This document shows positions 1 through 24,766 of a stretch of 64,000 nucleotides of DNA, piece after piece. The stretch covers positions 26,887 to 90,886 of the forward strand of contig CAZYST010000002.1 in NCBI GenBank assembly GCA_964650305.1, written 5' to 3'. Each line of letters opens with the position of its first letter. Position 1 is the first letter of the stretch. Made by a program: the position numbers and the translations under genes. The notes below the pieces were generated by a model that was given only the letters and a program-made list of their open reading frames with translations, searched no databases and was not told the origin of the DNA. Origin of the DNA: an uncultured Lachnospiraceae bacterium. Its GTDB lineage: Bacteria > Bacillota > Clostridia > TANB77 > CAG-508.

Positions 1-3000
1 TAATTGCATTTTGTACACCTTGACTATCTGTTGCTTTTGCTAATTTGAATGTTACATTTAATGTTACTTTTTCTCCTGGTTTAATTTTTACATTATCTAA
101 TGCGTTTGTACTCATTACTTTATATGTTTTACCATTTGCATCTGTAACTTTTTCACCAGTTTGTGTCCATGCTACACTATTTCCATTTCCATCTGTTGAT
201 GGCTCTGCTACTACTACTGTTTCTTCTTGTAATCCACTATCTGTTTTTGTTTGAACTAATTTCTTAACTTCTGTTTCAACTAATTCAAAACTATCATCAT
301 AATAATCTAAAACTTCATTTATTTCTGCATCATATATCTTAGAAGAGTTATATAAATCTATTCTGTATTTCAAGAACACATCTAATTCTCTATCTTCAAT
401 ATTTTCTAATCCTAAAGATTGATAATATGCATTTAAATCATCATATAGTTCTTGATTATCTTTATAAATTTCTGTTCTATAATAGTAGTCTGTATCATAT
501 AATTTTAAATCATATCCTGGTATTTGTTCTTTTGCTTGGAAGTACATAGTATCATCTATTGCTACTACTTCTCCATTTCCTGCTGTTCCACCATATAATT
601 TATCTAATAATTTATTGTATTTATATTCAACAACTTTTCCGTTTACAGCAACTTTAGCTGATACTAAATCTTTTGTTGCAAACATATCTGCATCTTCTCT
701 TAGTTTTAGTCCTAAATTAATATGTTGTGTATATCCATATGTTGCTGAATAAATATATTTTTGGTAAGCTCCTAATTCATCTATGCCTTTATCTATACTT
801 TCTAAATGAATTTTATTATCAAATGGATAATATAATCCACCTTGGCTTGTTCTAGCTGTTGCTTTAAATACATCTAATGCTACACCATTTTCGTCTCTTG
901 TTATAACTTCTGAAACTCTTGTTGTAGTATCTGAAACTGTTTGCTCTCTAGAAGTATAATCAATGCCTTGTTCTCCATTTTGTCCTACTACTTTACCATG
1001 TGTCATTCCTGTTGTTCCATCTATTGGTGTGTCACCTTTTACTTCTTGAATTCTATTGTCAACTTCTTCTCTATTTATATCTAATGCCATTGAATCATTT
1101 TGCCATTTGTCTCTTTCAGAAGTTGTAGCATTTATATATGCTGATGAATCTCCATTTGATGTAGCTAAGAATTTTGTTGGTTCATATGTTTGACCTTCAT
1201 ATATAAATTCTATATCATATTTTGCTTGTAACCCTTGTCCTTGTTCATCTGGATTTAATGCAGGTACTGACATTCTTGGTGCAAACCAATGACCAGCTTC
1301 TGTGTCTTCACCTGTCATTAACGGAAACTCTATTGGTGTTTTTTCTTCATCCAAATATCCTGTTGCAAGTTCTCTATAAAGTTCTTCATTTCCTTTATAT
1401 ACAACTCTATAAATATTTACTAAAACACCGTCTATTGGATTTTCTTGTCCTCTATCATAAATTCCGTTTTCTACTGAATTTTCTGTATTTTTATCATCTT
1501 CGTTTAGTGGAACATCCTCCCAAACATCACCAGCCATTTCCATTGTTAAATCTATTATAACTCTTGTTGTGAAAATGTTTGTTACTGTTACATCTATTGT
1601 ATTTCCTTCTTCTAGACTTCCATTTGATGATGAAATACTATCTAATTTCCAGCCTTGTGGCATTTCTGTTTCTGTTACATAATATGTTGGTGCTTCATCT
1701 CCATACCATTTTATTTCTGGAGTTTCAAAGCTTTCACCAGCTCTTACTGAATTTGTTATTGTTCTAGAACCATTTACTATACTTTCACCATTCATTTCGA
1801 ATGTTCCTGTTATTTTTACAGATATTGTAAATGTTCCTTCTATTGTTTCATTTACTTGCTTATCATCTGTTATAGCTTCTTTAGTTACTTTTATCTTTCC
1901 AGATTTTCCTTCAAGTTCATTTATTGCTATAACTTCTGCTGTACTATTTGATTTTAAAGATCCAGATTGATTTTCAATTTTTATAAGTTTTGATCCTTCT
2001 GGAATATCTATTTCTTCTACTTTATATGTAGGAGCTTCTGTACCTTTTAACCAAACAAAATCAGATGATTCATAAGTTTGATTTGCTTTTAAAGATACAT
2101 ATATTTCTTTATTTCCTATTAATCCACCATTTAATGTGATTTTGAATTTAAATGTGTCTGCTGAAGTTGCATTTCCATCTAATTTTTTAGTAATTCTTAT
2201 TTTTCCATGTTCGTATTCAGTTGTTACATCTTGACTGTTTATTGCTGTTACAGTTACTTGCGATGTAGAATCATTATCTTGTAAATATCCTGTTGATGGC
2301 GTTAAACTTATAAGTTTTGCACCTTCTGGAAGATTTACTTCTTGCACACTATATTTTGGTGCATTATCATCTGTCCAAGTATATTCTGGTGATACCCATG
2401 TCCATCCTGTTGCTTCACTAATTTTTACATTATGAATATCATTTCCTATAATAACTTTAAATTCATATTCTTTATCTTTTGTATTACCTTGAACTATTTT
2501 ATCAATTCTTAAAGTTCCTTTATGTGTATCTACAATTTGATTTATTGCTTTTACTTTTACTGTTCTACCGTTTTTTAAATCGCCTTTTGCATTTTCAATA
2601 TCTACAAGTTCTGTTCCTTCTTTTTCAACTTCTTCTACTCTATATGTTGGAACATCTTCATCTGCTCCCCATTTATATGTTCTAATTACAGTAGAATTCG
2701 CTTTTACTGAAACAGTTTCTTTATATTTATCATTTATATAGATTTTGAATTTAAATCTTGCATTTGAATCTACTTTTTCTCCATCTTTATTAACAACTAC
2801 TTTTTGTATTTTTAATTTACCAGAATTGTCTGGCATTTCACCTTCCCAATGAAGTTCTGTTTTAAATTTTACTTTTGCTGCTGAAAGACCTAATGCTAAT
2901 AATTGGGCTTTATTTTCTTCTAAAGATGTAAGTTCTATCCAATATGTAGTTGATTTAATATGATATCTATATTCACCATGTGAACAACTTTTTCCATCAC

Positions 3001-4228
3001 AAGCATTTTCTCCTGAACCATGTGGTCTATGGACACCTGATACTCTACACCAGTTATCTTTTGAATCTGCTTCCCACGTTGCTGTAAAATATGTACCATC
3101 TAAGTATTCATATTTTCCAGCTGCATTCATATATTCAAAGAAAAATGCTAAATCTGTGACTTTTGTTGCACCTTCTATATAATTTAATTTTATATAGAAA
3201 ACTTCATTTTTATGTGGAAATTCTGATTCATCATCATTATCTCTTTCTCCATGTAACCATAAGAATTCCCAATCTTTTCCTCTTTCTAATGGTTCTTCAG
3301 AAGCATCTGTATAAAGTTTTGCATCTGTTATACCTGCAAACATTACTTCTGCTCTTTCGCCTGCTTTAATTTTACTTTCAATATAGTCTATAGAAAATGG
3401 ACCTATTTTGTATACTTGTTCATCAGAATCCCAAGCAACTGTTGGTCTATCTGCTCCTTCTTCTTCTCTTTCGATTTTTCCGTCTTGGTTTGAATCTTCA
3501 TTATATTTTGGTTCATATTTTATATCAAATCCACAATCTAATGATTTTTCTTGACCATTGAATGTATAATTTATTACTGTGTTTTTACCAAGTTCATCAA
3601 CACTTGAAACTCCTGCTGCTTCTAATATATATGCTTCAAAAGCTTCTGCTTCAATTGTTAAATCATTTGGTGCAACTGGAATAGCACCTTTGCTACCAGC
3701 TTCTGTTGTCCACCATGCATTTTGCACATATGATGGATAAGGCATATTGTACATCATTTCAGATAATATATAAGCTTCTTTAGGTCCGCATATTTCTGAA
3801 CTTTGTACTTTAAACATACCATATGTATAATTTTGATAAGTACCTTCTTTAAATGGTGTTTCTGTATTTTCACCATCTAAAGTTACTTCGAAATTCTTTT
3901 TACCAATATCTTTATATGTTAAATATGGTTCTTCTGTACTTCCTTGTTCTGTTGTTAAAGTTACATCTTTTACCCCAGGAAGTTTTGAATCTACACCACC
4001 ATGATAGCAGCAGAAGTAATCATAAAAGTTTGCTAAATCTGCCATTGTTATATATCTTCCACCATTTACTTCATGTGCTGGATCATGTTCTGCTGATTCT
4101 ATAGTTGTAGTTTCTTCAGGAGTTACTTTTCCTGAATCTGTTGCAAATATATTACTTACGAAAAGTGTGCTTAATATTGTTAATGTTATTGCTAATGCAA
4201 TTAATATTTTATTTTTAGTTTTGTTCAT
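1..4228 (-). CDS. Giant secreted surface protein, B-type paralogue (B2). Start is at 4228 and the ORF is still open at the window edge (1409 codons visible). It is absent from the supplied ORF track because it is truncated.
   Basis: ATG at 4226-4228 with RBS GGAGGTG (4235-4241) 6 nt upstream, inside the end of the upstream gene. Manual reverse translation gives MNKTKNKILIALAITLTILSTLFVSNIFATDSGKVTPEE... (signal peptide). Frame hand-checked stop-free at 4228-3961, 3060-2941, 2880-2761, 2220-1921, 1620-1501, 660-620 and 58-2. Contains thioester-like C/Q motifs, four ~105-aa Ig modules and a D-rich SdrD-B-like region. Confidence 0.8.
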   Translation of the reverse strand, partial: MNKTKNKILIALAITLTILSTLFVSNIFATDSGKVTPEETTTIESAEHDPAHEVNGGRYITMADLANFYDYFCCYHGGVDSKLPGVKDVTLTTEQGSTEEPYLTYKDIGKKNFEVTLDGENTETPFKEGTYQNYTYGMFKVQSSEICGPKEAYILSEMMYNMPYPSYVQNAWWTTEAGSKGAIPVAPNDLTIEAEAFEAYILEAAGVSSVDELGKNTVINYTFNGQEKSLDCGFDIKYEPKYNEDSNQDGKIEREEEGADRPTVAWDSDEQVYKIGPFSIDYIESKIKAGERAEVMFAGITDAKLYTDASEEPLERGKDWEFLWLHGERDNDDESEFPHKNEVFYIKLNYIEGATKVTDLAFFFEYMNAAGKYEYLDGTYFTATWEADSKDNWCRVSGVHRPHGSGENACDGKSCSHGEYRYHIKSTTYWIELTSLEENKAQLLALGLSAAKVKFKTELHWEGEMPDNSGKLKIQKVVVNKDGEKVDSNARFKFKIYINDKYKETVSVKANSTVIRTYKWGADEDVPTYRVEEVEKEGTELVDIENAKGDLKNGRTVKVKAINQIVDTHKGTLRIDKIVQGNTKDKEYEFKVIIGNDIHNVKISEATGWTWVSPEYTWTDDNAPKYSVQEVNLPEGAKLISLTPSTGYLQDNDSTSQVTVTAINSQDVTTEYEHGKIRITKKLDGNATSADTFKFKITLNGGLIGNKEIYVSLKANQTYESSDFVWLKGTEAPTYKVEEIDIPEGSKLIKIENQSGSLKSNSTAEVIAINELEGKSGKIKVTKEAITDDKQVNETIEGTFTISVKITGTFEMNGESIVNGSRTITNSVRAGESFETPEIKWYGDEAPTYYVTETEMPQGWKLDSISSSNGSLEEGNTIDVTVTNIFTTRVIIDLTMEMAGDVWEDVPLNEDDKNTENSVENGIYDRGQENPIDGVLVNIYRVVYKGNEELYRELATGYLDEEKTPIEFPLMTGEDTEAGHWFAPRMSVPALNPDEQGQGLQAKYDIEFIYEGQTYEPTKFLATSNGDSSAYINATTSERDKWQNDSMALDINREEVDNRIQEVKGDTPIDGTTGMTHGKVVGQNGEQGIDYTSREQTVSDTTTRVSEVITRDENGVALDVFKATARTSQGGLYYPFDNKIHLESIDKGIDELGAYQKYIYSATYGYTQHINLGLKLREDADMFATKDLVSAKVAVNGKVVEYKYNKLLDKLYGGTAGNGEVVAIDDTMYFQAKEQIPGYDLKLYDTDYYYRTEIYKDNQELYDDLNAYYQSLGLENIEDRELDVFLKYRIDLYNSSKIYDAEINEVLDYYDDSFELVETEVKKLVQTKTDSGLQEETVVVAEPSTDGNGNSVAWTQTGEKVTDANGKTYKVMSTNALDNVKIKPGEKVTLNVTFKLAKATDSQGVQNAI

Positions 4229-4229
4229 A

Positions 4230-7200
4230 TTAAGCACCTCCTTTCCTTTTCTTAATTATCAGTTTGTTGTATGCTATAAATATTACTATGCTTCCTAATA
4301 ATATACTTGTAATTATTACAGATATATGAATAAATACTTCACCAGTTTTTACAGTTAACATTGTATCTGCAGAGCTCATATCATTTTCATTTTGAACTTT
4401 ATTTCCCGGTGTTGAATTTTTATCTGATATACCATAAATATTGTAATCTTCATAAATTTCTGCTACGTTGTTCACAATTCCTGTATTTTCTTCTGTCATT
4501 TGTTTTGTAAGTACTAATTTAATTTCTTTTGTTTCACCTTTTTGAAGTTCTGTGTTTTCTAAAGCTGTTGTATATAACATTCCATCTGTACCTGTATACC
4601 AGTCTGGGTTAAGTTCAGATTTAAATGTCATTCCTTCTGGAATATAATCAACTATCTTTTTAGCATATCCTGCAATATCACCAATGTTTGAAACTGCAAT
4701 GTTATATTCGATATATACTACTGATGTTGATAAATGTTTTCCAGCAATATCCATTTTTGCAAGTTGTGTTTTATCAAATGTTTGATTTGTTGTTCCAGCC
4801 TTATTTTGTACTGTAACTTTTGTTATTGTTTTATCTAATTTTAAATCAAATGTATCTGCTAATACTAAACCAATATCTATATTAGAAACACTTCCATTTT
4901 TTACAGAAATTGTATCTGTAACAGCTGCATTTCTCTTTCTACCATTTTGTTCTACTTGTGTTATGATTGCATCTGAATTAACATTTGCTTCTACATCTGA
5001 TTTTTGATATGTAGTAACTGTATATTTTACAGTATCATATTCAAACATTACAAGGTAATCTCCTTCTTCAACTCCTGAGAAAGTATATGTACCTTTACTA
5101 TCTGTTGTAACATTTTTTACAATATAACCTGTATTTACATCTACTAAACTTACTTTTATATCATTTAATCTTGGTTCATATTCATCTCTTTTTCCATCTT
5201 TATTGTCATCTAACCATGCTGTACCTGTTAATTTATATGTTTTAACAACATTACTATTATTTGATGAATAATTATTGTTTGTTCCTAAAGATGTATTTGA
5301 TTTTTCTACTACTGTTTGACCTCTACTTGTATCTGCTTCTATTATATGTGTTATAGAATTTGTTTCTGTTTCTTCTATTCCATCTCCTGAAACTTTTCCT
5401 ATGTTTGTTACTGTTCTTTCTTGAACGCCATCTAATCTTACTGCTAAAGCTTCTATATTAACAACAAGTTCGTTGTTAGGAGAAATTGTTCCAGATATTT
5501 CAGCTTCATAATTTGCTGATACTCTTTTTTCTGATTGAACACCATTTAATACATAACTTATCTTTCTTATGATTAATCCTTCTGGAATTTCATCTGTCAA
5601 TTTAACTGTTTTTGCAGAAGCAGAACCTGTATTTTTTATTGTAAATGTATAGAAAATTGATTCTCCTTCTTTTACATATGTATTTGTTGTTGTACTTGTT
5701 TGTGTTATATCTAAACTTGGTTTTCCAATATTTGTTTGTACTGTATTAGATTCATATGTTTTACAACCATCTGCTGTAACTTTTGAAGTTGTAAATAATT
5801 CTTTGTATGTATTTCCATCTGTAATATTTCCAACTTTTACTTTTACAACAACTTGTTTTGGAACTTTTGATTCTAATTCATCTATTTTCCATGTTACTGT
5901 TCTTGTTGTTTCATCATATGTTGCATTATTTATTTCATGTGATGTTATTCCATCTTCTTCATATTCTAATGTATATGCATTACTAAATATAAGTTCTTCT
6001 GGAATTTGTTTTGTTACTACTACATTTGTTTTTGTTTTTTCTGTTAAATTTCTAATAATTATATTGTATTTTAATTCTTGTTTTGGTTGATGTATTACAT
6101 CTAATGTTTCTGTAGTTTCTTTAATTTCTAATTCTGCACCAGTTATTTCTACACTCTTTACTTCAGATTTTAATTCTTTTTGTAAATCTTTAGCTTTAAC
6201 TGTTGAATACACTTCTAAGTTAACTGCTGGGTCTTTTATTACCTCGTCTGTATATTTAGCGTTTTCATCATGCATATCTTCTTGATTTTCATATGTTCTT
6301 ATTACATATGTTCCATCATCTAATTCTATAAATCCTTCTGTATTTCTATAATATTCTTCTATTGAAGGATAATCATTTACTAATACATTTATAGAAACTT
6401 CAACTTCTTTTTCTGTTTCTAATGAATCTATATAAAATACTACATTTTCATTATTTACTGTATATTGTAAATCTGTTCCTTGTTCTACTGTTGCAAATTT
6501 TGTATATTTTGGTATAGGAATATTAATTTCAATATTTTCTACTAAACTTGTTCCTGTATTTTTTACTTTTGAAGTTATTTTTAATTCTTCAAATTCACTT
6601 AGTTTTTCAACATCTGTAGATGTTTCTATATTAACTTCTGGTCCTTCACCTGTTGTAAGACCTACAATATCAGGTGTAGATGTTTCATCTGTTATTGCTA
6701 TTTCTGAATTATTTTTATAATATGCTAAGAACGTTCCATATATATTTTCATTATGTTCTAGATTTGCTGGTATTTCATATACATATGTAAATCTTAATAT
6801 TTCTGTTTCTATCATTTGGTAATCTGAATCTACTGGAACTATTAAATATGATTTCATATTTTCTAAACTTTCAGGATTTTCAACCCATCCATTATCAGAA
6901 CTACTCAAATCGTTTGTTGCTTCTTCATTTTCAGAATAGTAAACTTTAAATTCTCCTCTATTTCTAGCATCTGCTACTATTCCTTGAACCATTTTTGTAT
7001 CTACTGTTGTTCCTAAATCTGTTCCTGTTTCAATATCTTTTACTCCTTTGAAAGGTATTCTACCTAATATTGAAACTTCAGATACTGTATTTTTATTGTT
7101 ATTCATAACAATAATTTCCATTGTTGCTTGTTTAGCATCTGTATATATTTCTAAGGTATCTTCTTTTTTACCTTGTCTTACAGATGTAAGTACACTTCCA

Positions 7201-9446: not shown

Positions 9447-9510
9447 AATTCAAATCCTCCTAACAAACTTTGTTTTTGACATAGTATGACATTACTATCA
9501 TATAATATAT

Positions 9511-9538
9511 ATTTTACTACTTTTTGCATAGTAGTCAA
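9511..9538 (-). promoter_or_regulatory. Candidate sigma-A type promoter for the A'-B2 gene pair
   Basis: On the minus strand, TTGACT (9533-9538), a 16-nt spacer and TAAAAT (9511-9516), about 65 nt upstream of ATG 9446. The background is AT-rich, so specificity is limited. Confidence 0.3.
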
Positions 9539-10020
9539 TACCCTTAAACTATTGATATTTCTATATTTTCCCAACTTTTTCTTTAAGGCTTTACGGAATC
9601 AAATAATCTTAATTTTAAGTTTTAAAATATAAAATTTTAATTACAATTTTTATTGGTAAATAAGCACTTTGTCAAAAATATATTAATACATATTATATAT
9701 CATTATGTAAACCTTTTCAACATAATTATATCATTTTTTTGACTTTTTTTCAATATTTTAACCGCTTATTTTTCGCTTTTTTAAAGGTTTTTTTGACTTT
9801 TTTTGTCGAAATGTACATTTTTGTTTTTTTATTTCTTTTTTTCACTCAATTTTCATCAAATATATTTTTTTAATTCCTTATATCAAGAATATAATATATT
9901 CTTAGGGCAAGTAGACTTTCAAGCATTTTGTTTATTTGTGGATAAAATAATAAAAAGCCCAAATTTTGTAAGTAAACTTAATATAAAATAATTGTGCACA
10001 ACTTTTAAAATCTTATATAC

Positions 10021-10045
10021 CAAAAGAAGAGCTATTTCTAGCTCT
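10021..10045 (-). terminator. Rho-independent terminator after the 2731-aa gene. It separates the two gene pairs into two transcription units.
   Basis: 7-bp stem AGAGCTA/TAGCTCT with a 4-nt loop, followed on the minus strand by TCTTTTG, 12 nt downstream of the stop at 10057. Confidence 0.45.
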
Positions 10046-10056
10046 CCTTTTATTTA

Positions 10057-16000: not shown

Positions 16001-18252
16001 GAATCATAACCTGTTATTGTTCTACCATTTATATGATTTACATCATATATATATTTATTTATTTCTACATTTGCTATTAATGGAATATCCTTTAATAAAC
16101 ATTCTAATCTATTATCTTTAACTTTGGCTTCTTTTACAGCCAATAATTTCTGAGCATGTTTCATTCCCAAGTCTTCACATGTCCAGTCAAATTTTACACA
16201 TGTAAAATGTCCATGTGCACATTTTGTTCCTTCTTTTCCATTATTATCTCCTTGTTTATATGTAGAATTACCATAGCATTTATGTTTTCCATTACAAGAA
16301 AAATTTCCTGTTCCACTTTTACAATTTCTTTCTCCATACACTCCAGCATGATTTCCATTATAATGTCCATGTGAACAATAATTTTTTCTACATGGATCAC
16401 ACTTACAAGAATCTTCGTGTTCATGTCTAGTATAGTGCCATCCTGTTTTTACTCCATTTGAATCATAATCATATTCCTTTCCTGCATTAAGTTCTCCATC
16501 ACAATTACAATATCTTCTGTCAAATCCATTATGACATGAATAATGATCTTGAGAATATCCATGTTGACAATAGCTAGGACTTCCATATTGTGAACAAAAA
16601 TATGAATGATATTTATTTGTTGTAATTTCTTTACCATCTACTACTTGTGCTGATTTAGAATATCTAGAAAGAGTTCTTGGTTGATATCCACAAAAATCAC
16701 AATAATATTTACAATTTGTATATTCTCCCATTGCAAAATCAGACATTGCTTCTCCATCTTCATCATCATCATCTTTTAATGTAATATTGGTTGTTCTTGG
16801 TATTAATTTTCCATCCCATTCTAATAGTCTAAATTCGCCATTCAAATCCCATCCAGAACCTTCTGCTGTTAAATATTTATATGTAAATTTTAGTTCTTTT
16901 ACTTTAGTTGCATTTCCACATTCTGCTCTATTTACTTTTACATAGAATTTTGAACCTGGAGCTGGATATTGATAATTTCCTGTCATATCTGGAGATACCC
17001 ATGTTTCTTTATTATCATAACGACTCCCTGTAATATGCATTGACGGTACATCTGAATATCCTTCTACATATTCAAAATTATCTTTTTTTAGTTCTATGGT
17101 TGTTCCATTATCTAATACAAGTTCTGCTTTTACAATTCCACAAATTAAGCCATTATAAAAATCTTTTTCACTTGTAGACATATTCTTTACAAATTCTGCA
17201 TTTATTTCAGACTCCTTAGAAAATTGTTGCACATCTGAAGACCAAGCATATGTATATTCAGCTACTTTTATTGGACCTATCTTGTATTTTGAATCTTCTT
17301 TTTCATCTATTATTGTTCCTGTATTTTTTATATTTGTTTCATCTGTTGTAGTAGACAAATCAGGAGTCACTATATTTTCAAGTTTAAATTCTTCTACAGC
17401 TTTTGCTGCTCTATATAATGCTTGACCATTAGTTAGCGCTGCACTATCATTTATCGTATTTCCACCCAAAGTTCCTTTTTCATTTAACCAATTTGCAATT
17501 TGTGCTCTATCATTTTTATAATATGCTCTTTGTGAATAAGCCATAATATATGCTGTGGAAGTACTAAATTTTCTAGAAGAAAATTCATAATTCAACCTTG
17601 TTTTTGTAAATTGTTTATATACAACTTCTCTTACAATATCTCTTTCATGTACAGTCTTTGTCTCTGATTCAACGCTTCCACCTGTAACTGTACCACTTTG
17701 ATCGACATCAACTTCCAAAACTAATCCTTTACTACAAGAGTAAGGTCTATAATCTTCTATTGCATCATGATATACATCATCAGTATTTTTGTCGTTTGTA
17801 TCTGTATTTGTATCTTCTAGTGCATGAAACATATTTATCTTTCTACTTTTATATGCTGGCAAAGGTTTACCTGGCTCTGAACAAAATATAGATGTATTAT
17901 ATTTTAATGAGTCAAGCCATCCATATTTGCTTCCATATGTTTGTGCATTAATCTCACTTTTTACTGCACCATAATTTTTTATACCTGTATTTCCAGCAGC
18001 TGATTCATAAGATGTTCCTGTACTGCCATCACTTGCATATATAGCATATCCTCTATGTTCTCTAATTACAGAATTTTCAGCTATTCTATTTCCTGATGTT
18101 ATTTTCTCTACTGTATTTAAATTTATATTATCTTCTTTTGCTTCTAAAGCTTCTACATTTGGAGCAGAGATATATGCAATAATCGAATACATCACTGCTA
18201 CTGTTAACATTAATATTGATATTTTAACTCTTTTATTTTTCATATTCTCCAC
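10057..18252 (-). CDS. Giant surface protein, B-type paralogue (B1, up to 2731 aa): signal peptide, thioester-domain-like N-region, Cys/His-rich segment, DUF11-like Ig domains, two SdrD-B-like domains, Pro-rich linker, C-terminal TM plus basic tail
   Basis: Uninterrupted ORF. The track start 18252 is GTG; ATG at 18243 preceded by GGGGGTGGAG is the more likely start. Motifs: IFCSEPGKPLP and RAQIANW; VFLDDDKDGYMEDENDENRFNDITVNLYRV; PVPTPTTPENPDPDPN; GLVWDDSRSEPG...DDGEYVLYGFKPGYYIVRF. C-terminus GLMVIGIIAVVLVIIVFTTKFIITKIKKRPIK. Confidence 0.85.
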   Translation of the reverse strand: MENMKNKRVKISILMLTVAVMYSIIAYISAPNVEALEAKEDNINLNTVEKITSGNRIAENSVIREHRGYAIYASDGSTGTSYESAAGNTGIKNYGAVKSEINAQTYGSKYGWLDSLKYNTSIFCSEPGKPLPAYKSRKINMFHALEDTNTDTNDKNTDDVYHDAIEDYRPYSCSKGLVLEVDVDQSGTVTGGSVESETKTVHERDIVREVVYKQFTKTRLNYEFSSRKFSTSTAYIMAYSQRAYYKNDRAQIANWLNEKGTLGGNTINDSAALTNGQALYRAAKAVEEFKLENIVTPDLSTTTDETNIKNTGTIIDEKEDSKYKIGPIKVAEYTYAWSSDVQQFSKESEINAEFVKNMSTSEKDFYNGLICGIVKAELVLDNGTTIELKKDNFEYVEGYSDVPSMHITGSRYDNKETWVSPDMTGNYQYPAPGSKFYVKVNRAECGNATKVKELKFTYKYLTAEGSGWDLNGEFRLLEWDGKLIPRTTNITLKDDDDEDGEAMSDFAMGEYTNCKYYCDFCGYQPRTLSRYSKSAQVVDGKEITTNKYHSYFCSQYGSPSYCQHGYSQDHYSCHNGFDRRYCNCDGELNAGKEYDYDSNGVKTGWHYTRHEHEDSCKCDPCRKNYCSHGHYNGNHAGVYGERNCKSGTGNFSCNGKHKCYGNSTYKQGDNNGKEGTKCAHGHFTCVKFDWTCEDLGMKHAQKLLAVKEAKVKDNRLECLLKDIPLIANVEINKYIYDVNHINGRTITGYDSTMKKGDFRSKLSEDEKNAKPVYSEFGDYVTFKIEIENNSAFGVKVRATDELPKDATFVKANFSSSIDGQFTSNGNKKEITSMDDLEKVIIEINPKGKASFTVTMVVESLEGTYTNTAKLITRNRTTDSEWKDYVRTIDDNGPIVVVDKNGNEQTKWESKDSYILNDYDLQIDKYVSSYDASMMNENNKIGFTENETSTVGDKFFNNPGGNRDDYEDTVRFGIDESERFAQPFEVEKTEQIVYSIRLTNEDKEISADQVAYGGKQGTQVRPTKVREILDTGLKLIDVKAMIFGSGGEVKNDNVKFTQHDLGNNTYEFEIDNKTILDPGDMLIYFVKVEIEENNMFLLNLENTSFFTELTNINHKELDGEKKKDEAAKDRIVYERPTLNNPEIDRNINDEEITQEYVRLKDLVMAGKVFLDDDKDGYMEDENDENRFNDITVNLYRVHNGNEEKIGTTKTKANKLGENGFYTFERVDKADGKEYGNKVTDYYQSGGRYSDSSKYYEYYIEFEYDGVTYKATENYGGRTEEVNPNYGQNNIDEKWLPTNSDAEKYIKDSNAFEFTDVRDEFDENFETIGYNKAYKADENEDNKTIDERTGKDTSELTYSKTGHTSLLDAIDAPNSENHIERVMTARTFIKKDVIPVDGEINSYKDRGVNKSLENTKTLFLFKQGNDYKLPETEYLKYMNLGLVKREDVNVSLAKDLYSITTTVNGEQITYDYNQNGVKNNEILIKDGKYLTDEEAQGATGEEFNETNGKYIDNKNYELELYESDYYYRYEDYEHKVVRDYKTQNSELNIEVTFKITITNEEIIQDELNMKDPDREVLVTIDEVADYYDENFIEYTQEVENAYKNVLESGSGYTDKDNETADYPSMTEEQINRLGENEVVTIKVAENAEDAEDVNAVKLVDKKLEIAKAWYYKEGETEPTGLKLSNTSNYNRELTSRDSIYDADGYNKLYIRGFNNVQLEEGESVEIFIKYIVDKEGKEEARNILTPLDSTDSRNLKITEEVKDRLKDKYGRGTEGIGEISAYSTWYKNYDTTGQTATVKTTPLGFDVRPAGLVDRNSNPDNLGLGNAEPNTGASQQANESIDNVEFYEDDTYKIGVTMTVPRNPVPTPTTPENPDPDPNTKEFIRTIRGLVWDDSRSEPGSAGETNEQYSGNGYLQAEDKKNAFAKSNDNIDKNYKLKGTAQSEENDIMVRNARVDLVEIVYVEGNGTEPDRYYEEVINTDTYLKQITGTSEDFTLKQFTTRTNDDGEYVLYGFKPGYYIVRFGYGDYVEGENEIITDMAIFNGQDYKSTKYTSALDTDDNDTIIQKLEEETNNDARDDEIDRLNTIAYSEKMINEKAEILRSNYDYDDMTAEEKSEADGLIETLLRNTAMNAETVRFIVKPEKMTSTQMNNYLSVKPMSSATFMYEKLTNMLNEHISQRNFAINNVNFGIEYRPESQVNLVKEIDNISLVTSDGTELLRIYVNTEIERNAAGEIISRVHSIDRTRSIGLENTQFLSNEYTDFVDRNIIDEKLIGQGFVFINIDEEILQGSTVTIQYRFTAENVSEIDRIGVNLDELRFKDNNPAAYTNVESGTLKEMLTDEEYTEKDYNKRFGFISSALVSDKLYMVNESSKKIVGTNRITNANATSGSYSLYDTEYTAAGTASNILVNEMYRVDENKDIYRVGLKKAYYPTDVDAGRGNGYYGRYLGDYYYNSTVSDNDEIAQIKFDKILDYVDNDLVFKSTENSDTNGYWGTTTAKELYDDGYLGKLKRNNVFTDISEDTNTRVGLLDRNGVSYDSVKGTDILRTNLAVSVSDRTKDDEYGEQALEIKNKSISRFLTPLTYNVTEGTAGKKTVSGIKENPEAYEGQILLTLSKLVAQETESKDMTYENVAEVIQFTVTSGRRTNFITTIGNAKIENGEWKTSTEETDTSAAERITFTPPTGLTKTDRVIKDVVEKTSSGLMVIGIIAVVLVIIVFTTKFIITKIKKRPIK

Positions 18253-18256
18253 CCCC

Positions 18257-21200
18257 TTATTTATATACTTTCTTCAGTTTAGATTTTTCTTTCGACTTGT
18301 TTTTGTACGTTATGTTTATTTTAAATTTGCTTAAATCTACTTTTCCAGTCTTATCTAGCATTATAGCTATTAGTATTAGTAGCACCGCTATTGCTAATAG
18401 TATCTGTGGTGCTCTACCTGTACTTACAGTAACAATTAATTCTTGTGTTGCTGTATTTCCTTCTTTATTTTCCTCTAATCCTTCTTTTGTTACCAATGAT
18501 GCAATTTCTGCTTTATTGCTAAATGTTCCTGTATTATCTGTTGTCATTTGTTTTTCTAATATTATTGTTAATTCTTTCTTCTCACCAGGTTTTATTTCTG
18601 TATTTTTTAATGTTTCATTATATAAATTTCCATCTGTACCTTTATACCAACCATTATTTTCTTTTTCATTAAATATCATATCTTTTGGCATATAGTCTAA
18701 TACTTTTTCTGCAGTTCCAGAAACATTTCCTGTATTTTCTACTACTATTTTGTATTCTAATTTTATTTTTGTATTTTTTAAATTTTTAGATTTTATTTCA
18801 AGTTTTGCTATTTCTTTATTTTCAAATTCTTCTGTTTTGTCTTTGCAATTTGTTGTTACTATTGCTTTTGTTATATATTTGCTTACTTTTAAATCAAATT
18901 TATCTTTACTCTTTAATCCAAAATCTATATTTGTAATATCTGAATCTGTTATAGTTAATGTATTTGTCATAGCAACACCATCAACATTTTCAGAAGCATC
19001 TGAATTTTTATCTTCATCTACACCAGATTTTTTATACACCGTACCTACATATTTATTTGAATCATATATAAATGTTAATGTATATTTACCTACTGATAAT
19101 CCTTCAAATCTATATGTCCCTGTGCTATCTGTTGTGCAAGCTTTTATCATCTTCCCATCTTTATTTAATTGCACTTTTACTCCTGAAAGTTTTTCTTCAT
19201 TTTCGTCTTTTTTGCCATCTTGATTTTTATCAAACCAAGTTTGACCTGTTATTTTATATGTTTTTTCTTCTACTTTTGTTTCCTCTTTTTTGTTTGTTGT
19301 ACTATTGGCATTATTGTTATTAGTGTTGTTATTATTATTTGTATTTTCAGAACTATTTAAATAACTATCATCAACAACAGGATTTTTTATAGTATTATTT
19401 TTTTCTTCTTCTTTTTCTTCTTCGTTTGTTAATGGTCTATTTGGATTTTTAGCTATAGTAATATCTAAATTATTTACTTCTATTTCACCTGTTGTTTTTT
19501 CTGTTAGTTGTCCATAAACTGTTATCTTTTTAAAACTTTCACTTTCTGATAAAACTTTTGGTATTACTTTTATTATTAAAGATGATTTTCTATCAATATC
19601 TAATTTTGATAATTTACCTATTACAACATTATCGTTTATTTCTGTCCTTATTTGTGAATTTCCTTCATAAGATACTCTTTTTATTTCTAATTCTTCTGGT
19701 ATTTTTATTTTTGTTTCTATTTCGTTTGCCATTCCTTTTCCATCATTGGAAATATTTAGCACAATACTAAATTCTTCACCCTCTAAAGCATTTTCATTTC
19801 CTAAACTTGATGATTGTGCTACTATTAGTTTAGGTCCAAAAACTTCAAATGCTATTTTAGTTCCTAGTTCATCTTTATTGTCTTTTGATTTTACTACTAC
19901 TTGATTTGTTAATTCTTCACTTCCTGTGTTTATCATTCTTGTAATTTTACATTTAATATACATTCTTGTTGTAGCATCTACTTCTAAATCCCCTAAATTT
20001 ATTGTTAATAAATTAGTTTCTTCATCATAAGTATATTCATGTTCTTCATCATTTACTTCTAAACCTGTAACTATAATTTCTTTTGGTAATTTATCTTCTA
20101 TTAATATATCTTTTTGAATTGTTTCAGAAATATTTTTAATTGATACAGTATAATCAAATTCATCTCCTACTTCTAAATCCACTTTTGAATATTTTTCTAC
20201 AGCTGTACGTATATCAAAATTACATTTCTTTAATTTATTTTTAACTGTATTTGTTGTAATTTCTTTTGCCAAATTTCCAATTGTGACTTTAGCTGTATTT
20301 TCTACATATAATTCTGGTATTTCTGTTATATATTGTTTATTTCCGTTTTCGTCTATTTCAAATACACCTGTTTCATCCCAAGATTTATTATATAATATTT
20401 TATATTCATCCAATGTTTTTGGTAATTCTTGTGTTCTTACAATAAATGATTTTTCTACTACTTCACCAGCTTTTATTTCATCTATATTCCATTTTGCTTC
20501 TGCATCATTTGTCTCTTGATATCCATCATCTGTTAAGTCAGCATATATACCTTTTCCACAAATTCTAGTTAATTTTGGTGTTTCATTTATTATAGTTACA
20601 TCTTTTGCATCTATACTTCCTATATTGCTAACTATAATTGTATATTTTAAGAATTTTGCTTCATATACATCAGCTCCGTCTCCAATGTCAACATTCATTA
20701 TAGCTTCTACTTTTGGACCAGCTTCTGTTTCTAGCACAATTTTATCAGCAGATGAGCTTTCATATACTACTGCTACATCTGTTATATTGTTATAATATGC
20801 TCCAAAACTTCCTACTAATTTTGATTCATATGGTAGATTTTCAGGTATTTCAAAATCATAAGAATATTGTAATGAAGCACCATTTTCTACTAATCCATTT
20901 ACCACTATCAAGAAAGATTTTACATGTGTTAAATCTTCTACTTGTGTTGTCCAACCATTTGATTCATCATTTAAATTTTTATTTGCTTTTTCATTCGCTG
21001 AATAGTAAATTGTTGCTCCAGCTGAATTTGATGGATCTGTTTGTATTAGATCTTTTAATGTTATATTTATATTTGTTCCTAATTCTTCACCACTTATTAC
21101 ATCTGTATTTCCTTTAAATGGTACTCTTCCTAGCATTACTATATCTGTACATTTATTTCCTGTATTATTTAATACTACTAAATCCATTGTTGCTGTTATT

Positions 21201-23791
21201 GCACCATTATTTATATTTATTCTTCTTGTCATTTCACCTTGTTTTACAGAATTTACTTCTGATCCTTGTCCGTCATAATTTCTTATTCCATTTATTGCAA
21301 GTAAACCAACTGGTGCTTGATATTCTACTACTGCAACATCAAATCCATTTGTTTGTTTTAATATATTTGCTGGTACAGATTTATTTACTCTCCATAATGT
21401 TTGTGTTTGATAATTACTTACCCCTTCATTATAATAATATAATTTAATTTGATCTTCTTTTCTTGGTGTATATTCATCTAATTTCATTCTTGTATTTAAA
21501 ATAATATTTGTTCCATTTGTTATTTGATTATCTACAAATCTTGTTTGCGTTCCTTCAAGTTCTAATCTTGTTTTTAAATTTTCTCCATCCATATATGTTT
21601 CAAAGTGTTTTATTGTTAATCCATTTTCATATAGCATATTTACACTTTCTAAAACTACTTCTTTAATATATTTAGGATATACAATCTCAAATGTTGGATT
21701 TATGTATAAATCACTTTCAAAATTGTTGTTATTTAATTCTATTTTTAATTCAACATTTTCATTTTCTTGCATTGTTGTTAATTGTTCTTTGTTTATATTT
21801 AATGTTGCTTTTGTATAACTTTCTTTAAATTCTTTTCTCGTTCCTATTGTTGGTAATGTTAATGTTTCTTCTATATTTGCATATTTAACTTCAGCTGTTA
21901 TTCTACTTTCTATTGATTTAAATGTTGCAAATAATGCTTTATCTAATTCTGGTCTTGCGATTGCTTTTGTTATTTCAATATCTATTTTTCCATTTGCAGA
22001 AACATTTTTTACATTAATTATTACACCAGATTCATTATTCATATTTATTGTGCAATCTTCTTCTGATGATACTAAATCTTTTGTTAATGTATATAGTAAT
22101 GTTCCATCTAATGAATATATTTCAATAGCTCCACCATTTTCTAATGTTGATTTTATATCATTATAATTAAATTTTATTGTTTTGTATCTTATTCCACTTG
22201 CTTGGAATTCCATTTCGTTTTTATCTATAAATACTTCTTTTGAAGAATCTATTTTTAATTCTTCTAACATATCACTTGTAAGTATATTTAATCTTATATT
22301 ACTTGTATATTCTGTTTCATAAGGAATTTCATCTGAATTATAGTTTGCATATGTTTTTGCTTTATTTATTTTGTCTTCTGAAGTTCCTATGCTATATGTT
22401 ATTAATTCTCCTCTATTTGTTTCAATTTCATTTTCTTCTGATATCTGTTTTGTTATAGTATTTAAAGCATTTCCACTATATTCTTCTACATTTAATTCTA
22501 ATTCATTTTTTAATGTTACTTTTTCTTCTTCTGTATATTCATCAAATCTATATATAATAACGTATTCATCTTCACCCAAAGAGTTTATGGCTTTTCCATC
22601 TTTTTCATTTTTTACATTTATTGTAATTATTCCTTCATCTTTATTATATGTCCAATTTTCTTTATCAAATTCTACATATCCACTATCTTGACCTTTTGTT
22701 ACCATTAATTTATTTGCTTGAACATCAACACTTATTGGAGCTTTTCCATTAAATGTTGGAACTTTTATTTCTATGTTCATATTTTTAACTGGTAAATATT
22801 TTTCTTCAACAGTATTTCTTGATACTATTATTTTATTTTCTGCAATAATACCTGTTGTTTCACCTATTTTAAATGGAGAAAATTTTGTATATTCACTTGT
22901 TATTCCTATATCTTGTGTATAGGTCCAAGCTATATTTAATTTTTGTTCTTTAGCAACTTCTCTTTCTTTTAGATTTACATCTATATATTTTCCTTGTAAT
23001 CTAAAACTTATTTCTTGTGCTAAGCTTGAAATATCTATTTCAGATGAATTTGTATATTCAATCTCTGCTTCTATTTCAGTTTCTTCTAGTATATTTACAA
23101 GCTCAATTTCACTTTCTGAAATTATTCTGATATCTGAAACTAAAACTTCTTCTACTTCTTCCTGCTCTTGTTTTATATATTCTTCTTCATCAATAATTTC
23201 TTCTTGTTCTTGAACTACATTTTCTGAAATTTCATTTTTTTCTTCTACTTTTGGTAATTTAGTTTGTGTTTCAGGCATAACGCTAAATACTTCATTTACA
23301 ACATTTTCTGATGTAACTAAAGTATTTTCTACTGAGTTTTCTGAAATTTCATTTACATCTCCTACTAACTCTAGATTTTTATTATCTTCTACATCTAGTA
23401 TTTCTTCTGGTTCTTTTGTCTCTCCAGTGCTTATCGATGTAAATTTAAATCTTAATACACTACCATCTGTAGGTACTGCCGTTATTTTGGCATTTTTTAA
23501 ATACCCTTCTACTTGTGGGGTAATTTTAAACTTTACCTTTACTTTTTGGTTTACCTCACTTGTAATTTGGTCTGTTTCTTTTCCTTCTGTGTCCTCAAAA
23601 TAAGATGCAAACTTTACTTCATCTTTTTTGAAAAATCCATAAGAAATTTCTTTGAATTCTTCTGAAGATGCTATTGCTTGAATAGTAAAGCCAAAATTTG
23701 AAAACATTATCATGAAAATTATCATTGATATCAGGGTTTTTCTAATTTTTCTCTCCATCTTTTTTCTCTCCTTCTCTTTGGTTTTAGACAT
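18257..23791 (-). CDS. Giant surface protein, A-type paralogue (A, up to 1844 aa): signal peptide, acidic low-complexity stretch, unassigned beta-rich region, DUF11-like repeats, Asn-rich linker, SdrD-B-like domain, C-terminal TM plus long Lys-rich tail
   Basis: Uninterrupted ORF. Likely true start is ATG 23758 (MERKIRKTLISMIIFMIMF...) with AAGGAGAG 7 nt upstream. Colinear with the 1738-aa protein. SdrD-B-like GQTWFDKNQDGKKDENEEKLSGVKVQLNKDGK...DSTGTYRFEGLSVGKYTL. C-terminus APQILLAIAVLLILIAIML plus a K-rich tail. Confidence 0.85.
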   Translation of the reverse strand: MSKTKEKERKKMERKIRKTLISMIIFMIMFSNFGFTIQAIASSEEFKEISYGFFKKDEVKFASYFEDTEGKETDQITSEVNQKVKVKFKITPQVEGYLKNAKITAVPTDGSVLRFKFTSISTGETKEPEEILDVEDNKNLELVGDVNEISENSVENTLVTSENVVNEVFSVMPETQTKLPKVEEKNEISENVVQEQEEIIDEEEYIKQEQEEVEEVLVSDIRIISESEIELVNILEETEIEAEIEYTNSSEIDISSLAQEISFRLQGKYIDVNLKEREVAKEQKLNIAWTYTQDIGITSEYTKFSPFKIGETTGIIAENKIIVSRNTVEEKYLPVKNMNIEIKVPTFNGKAPISVDVQANKLMVTKGQDSGYVEFDKENWTYNKDEGIITINVKNEKDGKAINSLGEDEYVIIYRFDEYTEEEKVTLKNELELNVEEYSGNALNTITKQISEENEIETNRGELITYSIGTSEDKINKAKTYANYNSDEIPYETEYTSNIRLNILTSDMLEELKIDSSKEVFIDKNEMEFQASGIRYKTIKFNYNDIKSTLENGGAIEIYSLDGTLLYTLTKDLVSSEEDCTINMNNESGVIINVKNVSANGKIDIEITKAIARPELDKALFATFKSIESRITAEVKYANIEETLTLPTIGTRKEFKESYTKATLNINKEQLTTMQENENVELKIELNNNNFESDLYINPTFEIVYPKYIKEVVLESVNMLYENGLTIKHFETYMDGENLKTRLELEGTQTRFVDNQITNGTNIILNTRMKLDEYTPRKEDQIKLYYYNEGVSNYQTQTLWRVNKSVPANILKQTNGFDVAVVEYQAPVGLLAINGIRNYDGQGSEVNSVKQGEMTRRININNGAITATMDLVVLNNTGNKCTDIVMLGRVPFKGNTDVISGEELGTNINITLKDLIQTDPSNSAGATIYYSANEKANKNLNDESNGWTTQVEDLTHVKSFLIVVNGLVENGASLQYSYDFEIPENLPYESKLVGSFGAYYNNITDVAVVYESSSADKIVLETEAGPKVEAIMNVDIGDGADVYEAKFLKYTIIVSNIGSIDAKDVTIINETPKLTRICGKGIYADLTDDGYQETNDAEAKWNIDEIKAGEVVEKSFIVRTQELPKTLDEYKILYNKSWDETGVFEIDENGNKQYITEIPELYVENTAKVTIGNLAKEITTNTVKNKLKKCNFDIRTAVEKYSKVDLEVGDEFDYTVSIKNISETIQKDILIEDKLPKEIIVTGLEVNDEEHEYTYDEETNLLTINLGDLEVDATTRMYIKCKITRMINTGSEELTNQVVVKSKDNKDELGTKIAFEVFGPKLIVAQSSSLGNENALEGEEFSIVLNISNDGKGMANEIETKIKIPEELEIKRVSYEGNSQIRTEINDNVVIGKLSKLDIDRKSSLIIKVIPKVLSESESFKKITVYGQLTEKTTGEIEVNNLDITIAKNPNRPLTNEEEKEEEKNNTIKNPVVDDSYLNSSENTNNNNNTNNNNANSTTNKKEETKVEEKTYKITGQTWFDKNQDGKKDENEEKLSGVKVQLNKDGKMIKACTTDSTGTYRFEGLSVGKYTLTFIYDSNKYVGTVYKKSGVDEDKNSDASENVDGVAMTNTLTITDSDITNIDFGLKSKDKFDLKVSKYITKAIVTTNCKDKTEEFENKEIAKLEIKSKNLKNTKIKLEYKIVVENTGNVSGTAEKVLDYMPKDMIFNEKENNGWYKGTDGNLYNETLKNTEIKPGEKKELTIILEKQMTTDNTGTFSNKAEIASLVTKEGLEENKEGNTATQELIVTVSTGRAPQILLAIAVLLILIAIMLDKTGKVDLSKFKINITYKNKSKEKSKLKKVYK

Positions 23792-24191
23792 AATACGCCT
23801 TATTTTTATTAATATATAATATAATACTACGATATTTATTTTTATTTGTACATACCCTAAATTCCTTCATTTCCAATTGTTACAGAGTTTTTCAAAAAGT
23901 TTTTTTACGGAAATTATAGGTTTGCAACCATAATTTTTCTTTATTAAATTTTGATTACATTTTGTTTTTAAGGTATATTATCCACATTTTTTTAACTTTT
24001 TGTGGAAAAGGGCGTAGCTATCCATAATATTATTATACCACTTTTTCAAGCTTATGTAAACTTTTCCTCCCTACATTTTTATTCTTCTTTAATACCTATA
24101 ATTTTTGTTAGTATTTTAGAGTTTTTTAGCAACTTTTTTTAGTTTCCTACATATATTAATATAAAGAAAATTTATACAGGGGGTTTTTCTA

Positions 24192-24329
24192 ATGAATAAT
24201 ATGGATATAAATAAGCTTTTATCTGTAATTTCAAAAATGGATAAAGAAGAATTAGAAAAGAACATTTATAAAGCTCAACAAATATTAGAAAATTCTGATA
24301 TTAAAAAGAATTTTGAAAATAAAGAATAG
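24192..24329 (+). CDS. Small hypothetical protein (45 aa, helical and charged). Below the ORF-track size cut-off.
   Basis: ATG 24192 is preceded by AGGGGG (24176-24183 region). Translation MNNMDINKLLSVISKMDKEELEKNIYKAQQILENSDIKKNFENKE. Stop TAG at 24327-24329, 14 nt before the next gene. Confidence 0.4.
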   Translation: MNNMDINKLLSVISKMDKEELEKNIYKAQQILENSDIKKNFENKE

Positions 24330-24343
24330 ATATAGAGGTTATT

Positions 24344-24727
24344 ATGAACGAAGATTTCTCAGAGGTTTTAAATAAATTTTCAGACATTTTGAAAGATAAA
24401 AACATTAATTTAAATGATATTATAAATAATTCTAATACAGATTCTTCTGATAATTCTAATAATAGTGATTTTTCTTTTGATGTAGAAACTATAATGAAAA
24501 TTAAAGATGTTCTTTCTATTATGAACAAATCAAAAGATTGTCCTAGGAATAAACTTTTATATTCTTTAAAACCTTATCTTGAGAATACTAAAAAAGAAAA
24601 AATAGAGCAGTATATAAAGATTGCTAATCTTTTAACTGCTCTAGATTCTATGAATACTATAGAATTTAATAAAAACTCAGACTACGATTTTATTCTTATT
24701 ATAATTCTTGTGCTTCTTATACTATAG
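24344..24727 (+). CDS. Hypothetical tail-anchored protein (127 aa): Asn/Ser/Asp-rich N-half, conserved-looking helical core, C-terminal hydrophobic segment
   Basis: ORF with AGAGG 6 nt upstream. C-terminus DFILIIILVLLIL. A strong terminator follows. Confidence 0.6.
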   Translation: MNEDFSEVLNKFSDILKDKNINLNDIINNSNTDSSDNSNNSDFSFDVETIMKIKDVLSIMNKSKDCPRNKLLYSLKPYLENTKKEKIEQYIKIANLLTALDSMNTIEFNKNSDYDFILIIILVLLIL

Positions 24728-24766
24728 ATTTTAAACTTTAAAGATGCTGGCATTGCTTATCTTTTT

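Follow-up and report, generated by a model that had tools for sequence, protein, structure and literature searches.

The stalks of fibrillar adhesins contain isopeptide-type domains, among which are CLIPPER (DUF11), SdrD_B, and families related to them (10.1101/2025.04.25.650565). In the TIE proteins, which include SfbI, CpTIE, BaTIE, and TIEpLS20, an isopeptide-type stalk of immunoglobulin-like (Ig-like) domains carries an N-terminal head. Two of the three motifs of bacterial thioester domains are [YFL]-C-hydrophobic-hydrophilic and, on helix 2, TQxx-hydrophobic-W (PMC6194298), and the thioester domain of the pLS20 TIE protein is experimentally supported (PMC8092201). Among sortases, SrtB of C. 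difficile cuts an (S/P)PxTG motif, and an NVQTG-type motif was not cut by SrtB in vitro (PMC4155245). Here we compare with these systems two pairs of giant genes, A1-B1 and A2-B2, which all lie on the minus strand of a 64,000-nt stretch of DNA (the window) from an uncultured, spore-forming gut Clostridium. Our analysis makes it probable that they constitute two tandem operons, each encoding two giant, co-translated surface proteins of a fibrillar, adhesin-like kind that are exported through Sec and anchored at the C terminus. In the literature we found no paper describing such an A-B pair and no described pilus, S-layer, or MSCRAMM system that matched it, in agreement with an initial annotation of this DNA that could not map the pairing onto any of these systems.

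Two tandem pairs of giant genes

The four open reading frames (ORFs) together occupy 37% of the window, a figure already given in the initial annotation and borne out by the ORF list together with the frame that is open from position 4228. A1 (18257..23791), which we analyzed with the ORF list, Pfam, an AlphaFold2 (AF2) model, and Foldseek, encodes 1844 amino acids (aa). B1 (10057..18252) encodes 2731 aa when read from GTG 18252; ATG 18243 is the likely true start. A2 (4230..9446) encodes 1738 aa and is a colinear paralog of A1. B2 (1..4228) is represented by its N-terminal 1409 codons, a stop-free frame that runs off the start of the window. The G+C content of the window DNA is ~26% (24 to 30%), and because frames of such length at this composition would not arise by chance, they are taken as genes; chance ORFs were ruled out by length and conservation.

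BLASTP joined A1 and A2 in one colinear alignment of 1657 aa with 27.6% identity (E 7.6e-154), and identity in the final 320 aa was 39%, so the two A-type genes are colinear paralogs as initially described. Between B1 and B2, a stretch of 392 aa was 24% identical (E 3.3e-12) and a further stretch of 54 aa was 33% identical (E 5.5e-4). Judged by these alignments, the paralogy of the two B genes, which had also been proposed at the outset, is real but distant. No significant BLASTP similarity was found between A and B proteins outside the SdrD_B-like stretches.

Relatives of the module were collected by scanning one genome per species with a B1-family alignment, which gave 21 loci (L004 to L024). 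ORFs were called in these loci and then classed by comparison with the four window proteins. All of the scan loci come from metagenome-assembled genomes (MAGs) of gut Clostridia, including Candidatus Scatovivens, and the hosts were human, chicken, mouse, sheep, and deer. Four further loci were reached from A homologs (A-centered look-ups), and a direct contig look-up added L002. This neighborhood survey showed that A and B co-occur, with A always first, in all 34 inspectable pairs from the 21 species-level MAGs and in the four A-centered look-ups. Each B1-type gene with visible upstream DNA was directly preceded by an A1-type gene, and in the A-centered look-ups a giant gene always lay 2 to 16 nt downstream of A, either without a Pfam match or with a faint match to SdrD_B. 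The full A1-B1-A2-B2 order was present in 14 of the 21 scan loci and in L002; L001, L010, L012, and probably L014 had a single pair only, and L009 showed the variant order B, then A, then B. Alignment scores split A1-type from A2-type and B1-type from B2-type proteins cleanly into separate ortholog groups across species, which argues that the duplication predates these species. The initial claim that the A-then-B order had survived an old duplication stands on these two results.

In protein collections, at least 6 homologs of B1 were found, with 32 to 34% identity. In a collection of 5.8 billion proteins, the closest relatives among the matches listed had 84% identity to A1 and 34% identity to B1, and no entry was identical to A1 or B1. 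The species of the window seems to be absent from this collection or thinly represented in it.

The A and B genes of each pair are separated by a few nucleotides. At the A1-B1 junction (18241..18259), the TAA stop codon of A1 (18259-18257) is followed by GGGGGTGGAG and by the ATG at 18243, with a gap of 13 nt. GGGGGTGGAG is the Shine-Dalgarno sequence of B1 and lies 3′ of the A1 stop codon, outside the A1 gene. This layout, with a 12- to 15-nt gap and GGAGG after the stop, was kept in 19/19 related loci. At the A2-B2 junction (4226..4241), GGAGGT (4241-4236) lies within the last A2 codons, followed by TAA (4232-4230), 1 nt, and ATG 4228. Eleven of 15 related loci had the same 1-nt gap with GGAGGTGTT-TAA-T-ATG, the ribosome-binding site again lying within the last A2 codons. 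The initial annotation had placed the ribosome-binding site of each B gene inside the A gene, with a gap of 1 to 13 nt; the placement holds for the second pair (GGAGGT in A2, 1 nt) but not for the first, in which the Shine-Dalgarno sequence comes after the stop within the 13-nt gap. The final codons of A2-type genes (K-G-G-V/A) serve also as the ribosome-binding site of B2.

Because gene order and tight junctions are both conserved, there is strong comparative evidence that A and B are co-expressed, and the proposal that the two proteins act together is well supported by comparative genomics.

Directly past the B1 stop codon lies a G+C-rich hairpin (10028..10045), the likely terminator between the pairs. 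A terminator had been annotated at this place, and we retain it as likely, although the scan scored the hairpin on the + strand; on the minus strand, TCTTTTGG comes next. The ~0.6-kb leader reported between the pairs was found as an inter-pair region of 610 nt (9447..10056, minus strand), which contains a sigma-70-like promoter, TTGACT-16-TAAAAT (9538-9511), and a conserved CCGTAA (9596-9591). The region upstream of A1 (23792..24191, minus strand) also contains CCGTAA (23910-23905), together with promoter-like sites, e.g., at 24060-24032. In most species, A1- and A2-type genes have a common upstream layout consisting of AAAAyTTwATAT, ~30 nt, TTCCGTAAA, 60 to 70 nt, and a sigma-70-like promoter. 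Of 36 upstream regions (loci L005 to L024 plus the window), 26 had CCGTAA at -116 to -185, compared with a chance expectation of ~1.7 of 36 from base composition; shared ancestry raises the observed count. As both pairs carry the same upstream layout, these data suggest one common regulator for both. Rfam identified no family in either leader (the region upstream of A1 and the B1-A2 gap), neither a riboswitch nor any other known RNA.

Architecture of the A and B proteins

Signal peptides were judged by reading the sequence (basic n-region, hydrophobic core, A-x-A-like site), and all four proteins have signal-peptide-like N termini. A C-terminal hydrophobic helix and a basic tail were seen in A1, A2, and B1; the C terminus of B2 lies beyond the window. 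In A1, the signal peptide is followed by a small N-terminal beta domain, an acidic disordered linker (~aa 124 to 218), and about ten Ig-like sandwiches. The C-terminal part consists of CLIPPER/DUF11 repeats, an SdrD_B domain, a CnaA-like domain, TVSTG, a transmembrane helix, and a basic tail ending in KKVYK; in A2, the corresponding end is TVKTG, a transmembrane helix, and the tail KKRKGGA. In the C-terminal third of each A protein, Pfam detected one SdrD_B domain and three to four stretches of DUF11/CLIPPER, all above its cutoffs, with PF01345 (DUF11/CLIPPER) scores of 49.8 bits for A1 and 60.3 bits for A2 (gathering cutoff, 24.6 bits). With the hydrophobic helix and basic tail, these matches substantiate the DUF11-like repeats, single SdrD_B domain, and C-terminal anchor that had been assigned to the A-type genes. 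The SdrD_B domain of A1 matches PDB chains of UafA (E 5e-10) and SdrD (E 3e-6) and is part of a C-terminal module (18356..19264, minus strand; aa 1510 to 1812) that further includes a CnaA/CLIPPER-like domain, TVSTG (18416-18430), and the transmembrane helix (18356-18403).

No Pfam family matched the N-terminal 1200 residues of A1. An AF2 model of aa 1 to 1200, made with an 82-sequence alignment, was all-beta, with a mean predicted local distance difference test (pLDDT) score of 82.8. It showed the small beta domain at aa 55 to 122 and the acidic disordered linker at aa 124 to 218, after which beta sandwiches followed one another without a break. Foldseek searches with this model returned multi-Ig proteins only, such as PrgB Ig-like domains, integrin legs, and complement/macroglobulin MG domains, with TM-scores that were low because the rod is flexible. 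We saw no head domain in the A1 model and found no recognized adhesive domain in A. The initial statement that about 1000 N-terminal residues of the A-type proteins match nothing recognizable thus remains true of family matches, but their fold can now be read as a chain of Ig-like sandwiches.

For the full-length B proteins, Pfam gave no match. B1 has a signal peptide, a hypervariable head, a Cys/His-rich insert, a CLIPPER domain, and two SdrD_B-like plus CnaA-like modules with large inserts, and it ends in TPPTG, a transmembrane helix, and KKRPIK. The CLIPPER domain was detected in a B1 fragment, at aa 767 to 880 (33.8 bits). Besides a head (with YFCCYHG and VQNAWW), B2 has a short Cys/His element, four domains of the DUF7601/SpaA_4 type, a module resembling SdrD_B, and an LYDTDYYYR block. 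A B2 fragment matched four DUF7601 domains and one SpaA_4 domain at aa 470 to 890, and no PF01345 match was found in the part of B2 within the window. Of the features that had been listed for the B-type genes, the Cys...Gln N-domain, the Cys/His element, and the LYxxDYYYR block are indeed present in both proteins, but the SdrD_B-like signals are weak or subthreshold in Pfam.

The Cys/His-rich insert of B1 (16099..16713, minus strand; aa 514 to 718) contains 19 Cys and 14 His residues, with many C-x-H and H-x-H runs; in B1-type proteins, the insert separates the head region from the first CLIPPER domain. Its length varies among homologs: it is much longer in some of those compared (P0001 to P0006) and only ~30 aa long in B2. 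The insert matched no family, and the AF2 model was unstructured and of low confidence across it. It might bind metal or be disulfide-rich.

Alignment with hhalign of the last 350 residues of A and the last 860 residues of B gave a probability of 95.5% (E 1.6e-8) over four colinear segments. The first two segments are the Y-x-I-x-G-x-V-W-x-D start and the T-D-x-x-G-x-Y..G-x-Y-x-V-x-F-x-Y core; the other two are the N-I-D-F-G-L...K-Y-I-T-K...L-E-Y-K-I-x-V-x-N block and x-I-L-D-Y. The four matching segments argue that A and B share a homologous membrane-proximal module, SdrD_B-like plus CnaA/CLIPPER-like, that is expanded by inserts in B. Much of the ~650-residue C-proximal region of B1 that initially matched nothing can now be explained as such an expanded A C-terminal module.

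The C termini of the two types carry different motifs before the helix. In A proteins, the motif [IV][TLS][VI][SKRGQ]-T-G sits 1 to 5 residues before the helix; x-x-x-TG is present in 75 of 81 A proteins, 69 of which carry the full six-residue motif. In B-type proteins, [TISA]PPTG precedes the helix in 27/27 C termini examined. In B1 itself, TPPTG (10207..10221, minus strand) is followed by an 18-aa spacer, the transmembrane helix (10099-10152), and the basic tail. The spacer measures ~18 to 30 aa in B1-type homologs and 4 to 8 aa in L036 and L038. The xPPTG of B resembles the (S/P)PxTG motif of SrtB but has a long spacer in B1-type proteins, and the A motif is NVQTG-like and lacks Pro. The tail ends are conserved across species as KK[IV]YK in A1-type proteins (18257-18355 in the window) and as KKRR[IY]K-like sequences in B-type proteins (10057-10098).

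Across orthologs, the distal 1000 residues are the best-conserved part of A, with pairwise identities of 0.5 to 0.6 for A1-type and 0.5 to 0.7 for A2-type proteins. The first 700 residues of B1-type proteins (head plus Cys/His insert) are hypervariable, with identities of 0.11 to 0.24; the remainder of B ranges from 0.21 to 0.6, mostly 0.35 to 0.6. Because the head region is hypervariable and the distal part of A is conserved, B looks like a diversifying binding arm and A looks like a conserved partner or scaffold.

We compared these architectures with the described systems. As in fibrillar adhesins, a secretion signal (read from the sequence), a repeated Ig-like stalk, and a C-terminal anchor were found, but a recognized adhesive domain was not. 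A1, A2, and B1 resemble CLIPPER fibrillar adhesins in having DUF11/CLIPPER matches above the Pfam cutoff together with SdrD_B and in being long, anchored proteins that begin with a signal peptide. Unlike in those adhesins, CLIPPER domains account for only a little of each protein, A consists mostly of Ig-like domains outside Pfam, A lacks a recognized adhesive domain, and the obligate two-gene arrangement is undescribed for CLIPPER proteins. The B proteins resemble TIE proteins in their head-on-stalk layout, in the F/Y-C-x-polar Cys motif and the Q-x-x-hydrophobic-W-like motif of the head, and in the LPXTG-like motif with a helix and a basic tail after it. They differ in that the head has no detectable sequence or profile homology to thioester domains and no second conserved Gln, the proteins are 3 to 5 times longer, B contains the Cys/His-rich insert and is always paired with an A-type gene, and the PPTG-helix spacer of B1-type proteins is long. 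The C. difficile SrtB substrates CD2831, CD3392, and CbpA, with (S/P)PxTG or NVQTG followed by a helix and a basic tail, have counterparts in the xPPTG of B and the x-V/I-x-TG of A; however, no sortase was found here, neither leader contains a c-di-GMP riboswitch according to Rfam, and the proteins are far larger and paired. With the Sdr-family MSCRAMMs (SdrD, UafA), A1 has the matching SdrD_B domain in common, but neither A nor B has an N2-N3 ligand-binding region, Ser-Asp repeats, or a canonical LPXTG motif. MSCRAMM membership was rejected, since only the B-repeat (SdrD_B) domain is common. Sortase-assembled pili are likewise encoded by adjacent genes for Ig-like, isopeptide-type proteins with LPXTG-like ends, but no pilus sortase was found among the scanned ORFs of the present cluster, each subunit has its own long stalk, and the subunits measure 1700 to 2900 aa instead of ~300 to 900 aa. 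We class the A-B pair with the fibrillar, isopeptide-stalk surface proteins of Gram-positive bacteria but outside the TIE, pilus, and MSCRAMM families.

The B head and competing explanations

The B1 head (17218..18075, minus strand; aa 60 to 345) contains Cys124 in IFCSEPG (17869-17889) and Gln251, Ala253, and Trp255 in AQIANW (17488-17505). In the B2 head (3374..4141, minus strand; aa 30 to 285), the corresponding sequences are YFCCYHG (3998-4018) and VQNAWW (3710-3727). We aligned 33 B1- and B2-type N termini and found that, at a mean identity of 17%, the Cys motif ([YF]-F-C-x-[QE]-[HK]-G..P) and Q-x-A-x-W were kept in at least 90% of the heads. In a second set of 25 library relatives, the Cys, one Tyr, and Q-x-A-x-W were invariant, and no His or Asp was. 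A homolog search with the 33-sequence alignment gave no match. When 1.84 billion representative proteins were searched exhaustively with the head profile (HMMER), only 31 relatives were retrieved, of which the long ones measured 2276 to 2845 aa and the rest, at 110 to 1239 aa, looked like contig-truncated fragments; none of these representatives carried the head on another protein architecture. Because all the relatives are B-type giants or fragments, the head appears to occur only on B-type giants. From its position and hypervariability only, we infer that the head may bind a ligand.

The two conserved motifs bear on whether the head could be a true, very divergent thioester domain, and B a TIE-type covalent adhesin, which we regard as possible but doubtful. 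The Cys motif fits [YFL]-C-hydrophobic-hydrophilic (IFCSE in B1, YFCCY in B2, and FC[AMQ]QHG in most relatives), and plasmid class II thioester domains have a very similar Cys context, e.g., AFCFQHGEQTP. Q-x-A-x-W fits TQxx-hydrophobic-W, with the Thr not conserved and Asn at the hydrophobic position in B1; it is predicted to be helical in a low-confidence model that has three helices around it. No conserved His or Asp accompanies the Cys. When the heads were aligned by hhalign with 11 plasmid class II domains, assembled from pLS20 TIE and its relatives, the sole match fell exactly on the thioester Cys motif (P 0.017). As a control, the proven thioester domain of pLS20 TIE was searched by phmmer and likewise missed the solved thioester domains; because this control also fails, the negative sequence searches with the B head are weak evidence.

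Several results weigh against the thioester assignment or, more broadly, against an adhesin-like function of the pairs. B has no recognized adhesive domain, and its head matches no Pfam, NCBIfam, or PDB family. The Pfam thioester (TED) models matched 0/33 and 0/25 heads, the NCBIfam thioester (TQXA) models matched 0/33 heads, and a PDB profile search with the head found no solved thioester domain; tblastn against plasmids gave no link of the B head to thioester domains. The hhalign match to class II domains covered 26 columns around the Cys alone, with a probability of 2.7%. No Gln was conserved between Q-x-A-x-W and 60 aa past Y-K-I-G-P, downstream of the helices, where the bond-forming Gln is expected; the candidate positions in this low-identity alignment hold Q, M, D, and N. 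The distance from the Cys to the Trp is ~95 to 190 aa, compared with ~58 aa in EfmTIE86 (PMC6194298). The AF2 model of B1 aa 1 to 1157, built from 8 sequences, had a mean pLDDT of 44, with values of <50 over most of the head (aa 19 to 221), too poor a basis for judging the head fold; Foldseek with this model returned generic Ig-like and weak CBM3-like matches, to which we give no weight. The "covalent tip adhesin" of the initial annotation remains hypothetical, its covalent chemistry coming down to the two motifs of the B head. Apart from the head, the relatives of the module are all MAGs, the conserved distal part of A is unusual in an adhesin and could mean a structural role, and the B1-type PPTG-helix spacer is long for a sorting signal. 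Among 30 scanned window ORFs (ORFs of <90 aa and a few from 59.9 to 64 kb were left out), we found no Sortase family, and none of five related loci (L001, L002, L036, L037, and L038) had a sortase in its gene table.

The sorting-type motifs and the fixed gene order would fit a sortase-built two-subunit fiber in which B is cut at xPPTG and joined to a lysine of A or to the wall, with A as the base and B as the tip: xPPTG is invariant in B and like the C. difficile SrtB motif, and A has the related x-V/I-x-T-G directly before the helix. However, pilus clusters normally include their own sortase, and none lies beside the module in the scanned window ORFs or the five gene tables. Both proteins also keep full anchors, and the NVQTG-type motif, which is A-like, was uncut by SrtB in vitro (PMC4155245). 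We consider such a fiber decidedly unlikely. The "base/stalk plus tip" arrangement of the initial annotation, taken in the pilus sense, meets the same difficulty, since each protein has its own signal peptide, long stalk, and anchor. A and B would instead be complete, separately anchored fibers, and the base/stalk plus covalent-tip model is not established. Independent neighboring adhesin genes were considered as well and were ruled out by the junctions conserved across 34/34 pairs.

It is very unlikely that the proteins serve the envelope or the spore surface structurally, for example, as struts that span the wall or as appendages, and are not adhesins. The conserved synteny after mreBCD-PBP-minC, SpoIIE following the module in L038, the sporulation genes in the window, and the conserved distal part of A with no head domain point that way, but the pair lies in other genomic contexts in L001 and L036, a hypervariable B head is expected of a diversifying binding surface, and the stalk families are typical of fibrillar adhesins. 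The invariant Cys within an otherwise hypervariable domain might also suggest an enzyme or toxin with a catalytic cysteine (e.g., peptidase or transglutaminase-like) on a long stalk. This explanation is highly improbable, as no His or Asp is invariant, no Pfam, NCBIfam, or PDB family matches, and B is followed not by a small immunity-like gene but by A2 or, in L038, by SpoIIE.

Taken together, we favor as probable the reading stated at the outset, two tandem operons that each encode a co-translated pair of anchored, fibrillar adhesin-like proteins. Tight coupling would then deliver A and B in fixed proportion and to the same membrane place, and the two proteins would be neighbors on the cell surface, retained there by their membrane helices, with B perhaps also moved to the cell wall by a sortase reading xPPTG. 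B would be the ligand-binding arm, with a specificity that diverges between species and between the two copies, and the predicted reactive Cys of its head may attach to the target by a covalent bond of the thioester type. A would be the conserved partner or scaffold, a rod of Ig-like sandwiches without a recognizable adhesive head. The two copies could provide two specificities under a shared upstream control element. A bolder version, which we think unlikely, is that A-B is an unrecognized two-protein surface device in which B binds covalently through a new class of reactive-cysteine head, A is the obligatory partner, and the duplication gave each cell two devices that differ in specificity, under one regulator. 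The head might then be a thioester domain beyond current models, perhaps one that uses the Gln of Q-x-A-x-W, and the contact of A with B might be made by the membrane-proximal module that they share or by the conserved distal rod of A.

Genomic setting and significance

The module follows an mreB-mreC-mreD-PBP2-minC cluster and has the same position after minC in most related genomes; in L001 and L036, the A-B pair lies in a different genomic context. The cluster in the window (25121-30278, minus strand) ends with minC alone, followed by a strong hairpin terminator (25050-25085), and neither minD nor minE was found after minC in it. Two divergent small genes lie upstream of A1, one encoding 45 aa (24192-24329, + strand) and the other encoding 127 aa (24344-24727, + strand), and neither product matched a Pfam family. 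The 127-aa protein ends in a hydrophobic helix at its C terminus and carries a PRNKLL-SLKPYL motif that is conserved. Its gene is kept upstream of A1-type genes in 16 related loci (tblastn, E 1e-12 to 5e-53), including L036 despite the different genomic context there. The two small genes could encode a regulator or accessory factor of the module. In L038, a relative with only one A-B pair, spoIIE comes next (23531-25076), which gives a hint of what may be found downstream of B2, outside the window.

At the other end of the window are the origin-proximal genes parB, parA, rsmG/gidB, and mnmG/gidA (54907-63606). Because gidA, gidB, parA, and parB are present, along with sporulation genes, gene content places the window near the chromosomal origin of a spore-forming Clostridium. 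The GC skew is steadily negative throughout the window, which fits a single replication arm. We also note a 995-aa ORF (43075-46062, minus strand) in which a UTP-glucose-1-phosphate uridylyltransferase domain (UDPGP) is fused to a complete phosphoglucomutase/phosphomannomutase; in this fusion, a single chain would act as a two-step sugar-nucleotide enzyme.

What is new here is the pairing, together with a rare head domain that has 31 relatives among 1.84 billion proteins; current understanding is not overturned. Strict A-B pairing, maintained through an old duplication, has no counterpart in the fibrillar adhesins, TIE proteins, or pili described so far, and it suggests a two-protein mode of action. 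If the B head binds covalently, it would widen the range of thioester-type adhesion and might offer a new protein-ligation scaffold; if it is not reactive, the analysis would still supply a useful annotation for a large uncharacterized block of gut-microbiome sequence. The A-B proteins take up ~24 kb per genome in a clade of uncultured gut Clostridia from humans, chickens, mice, and ruminants, and they probably make up a large share of the surface that these bacteria present to their surroundings.

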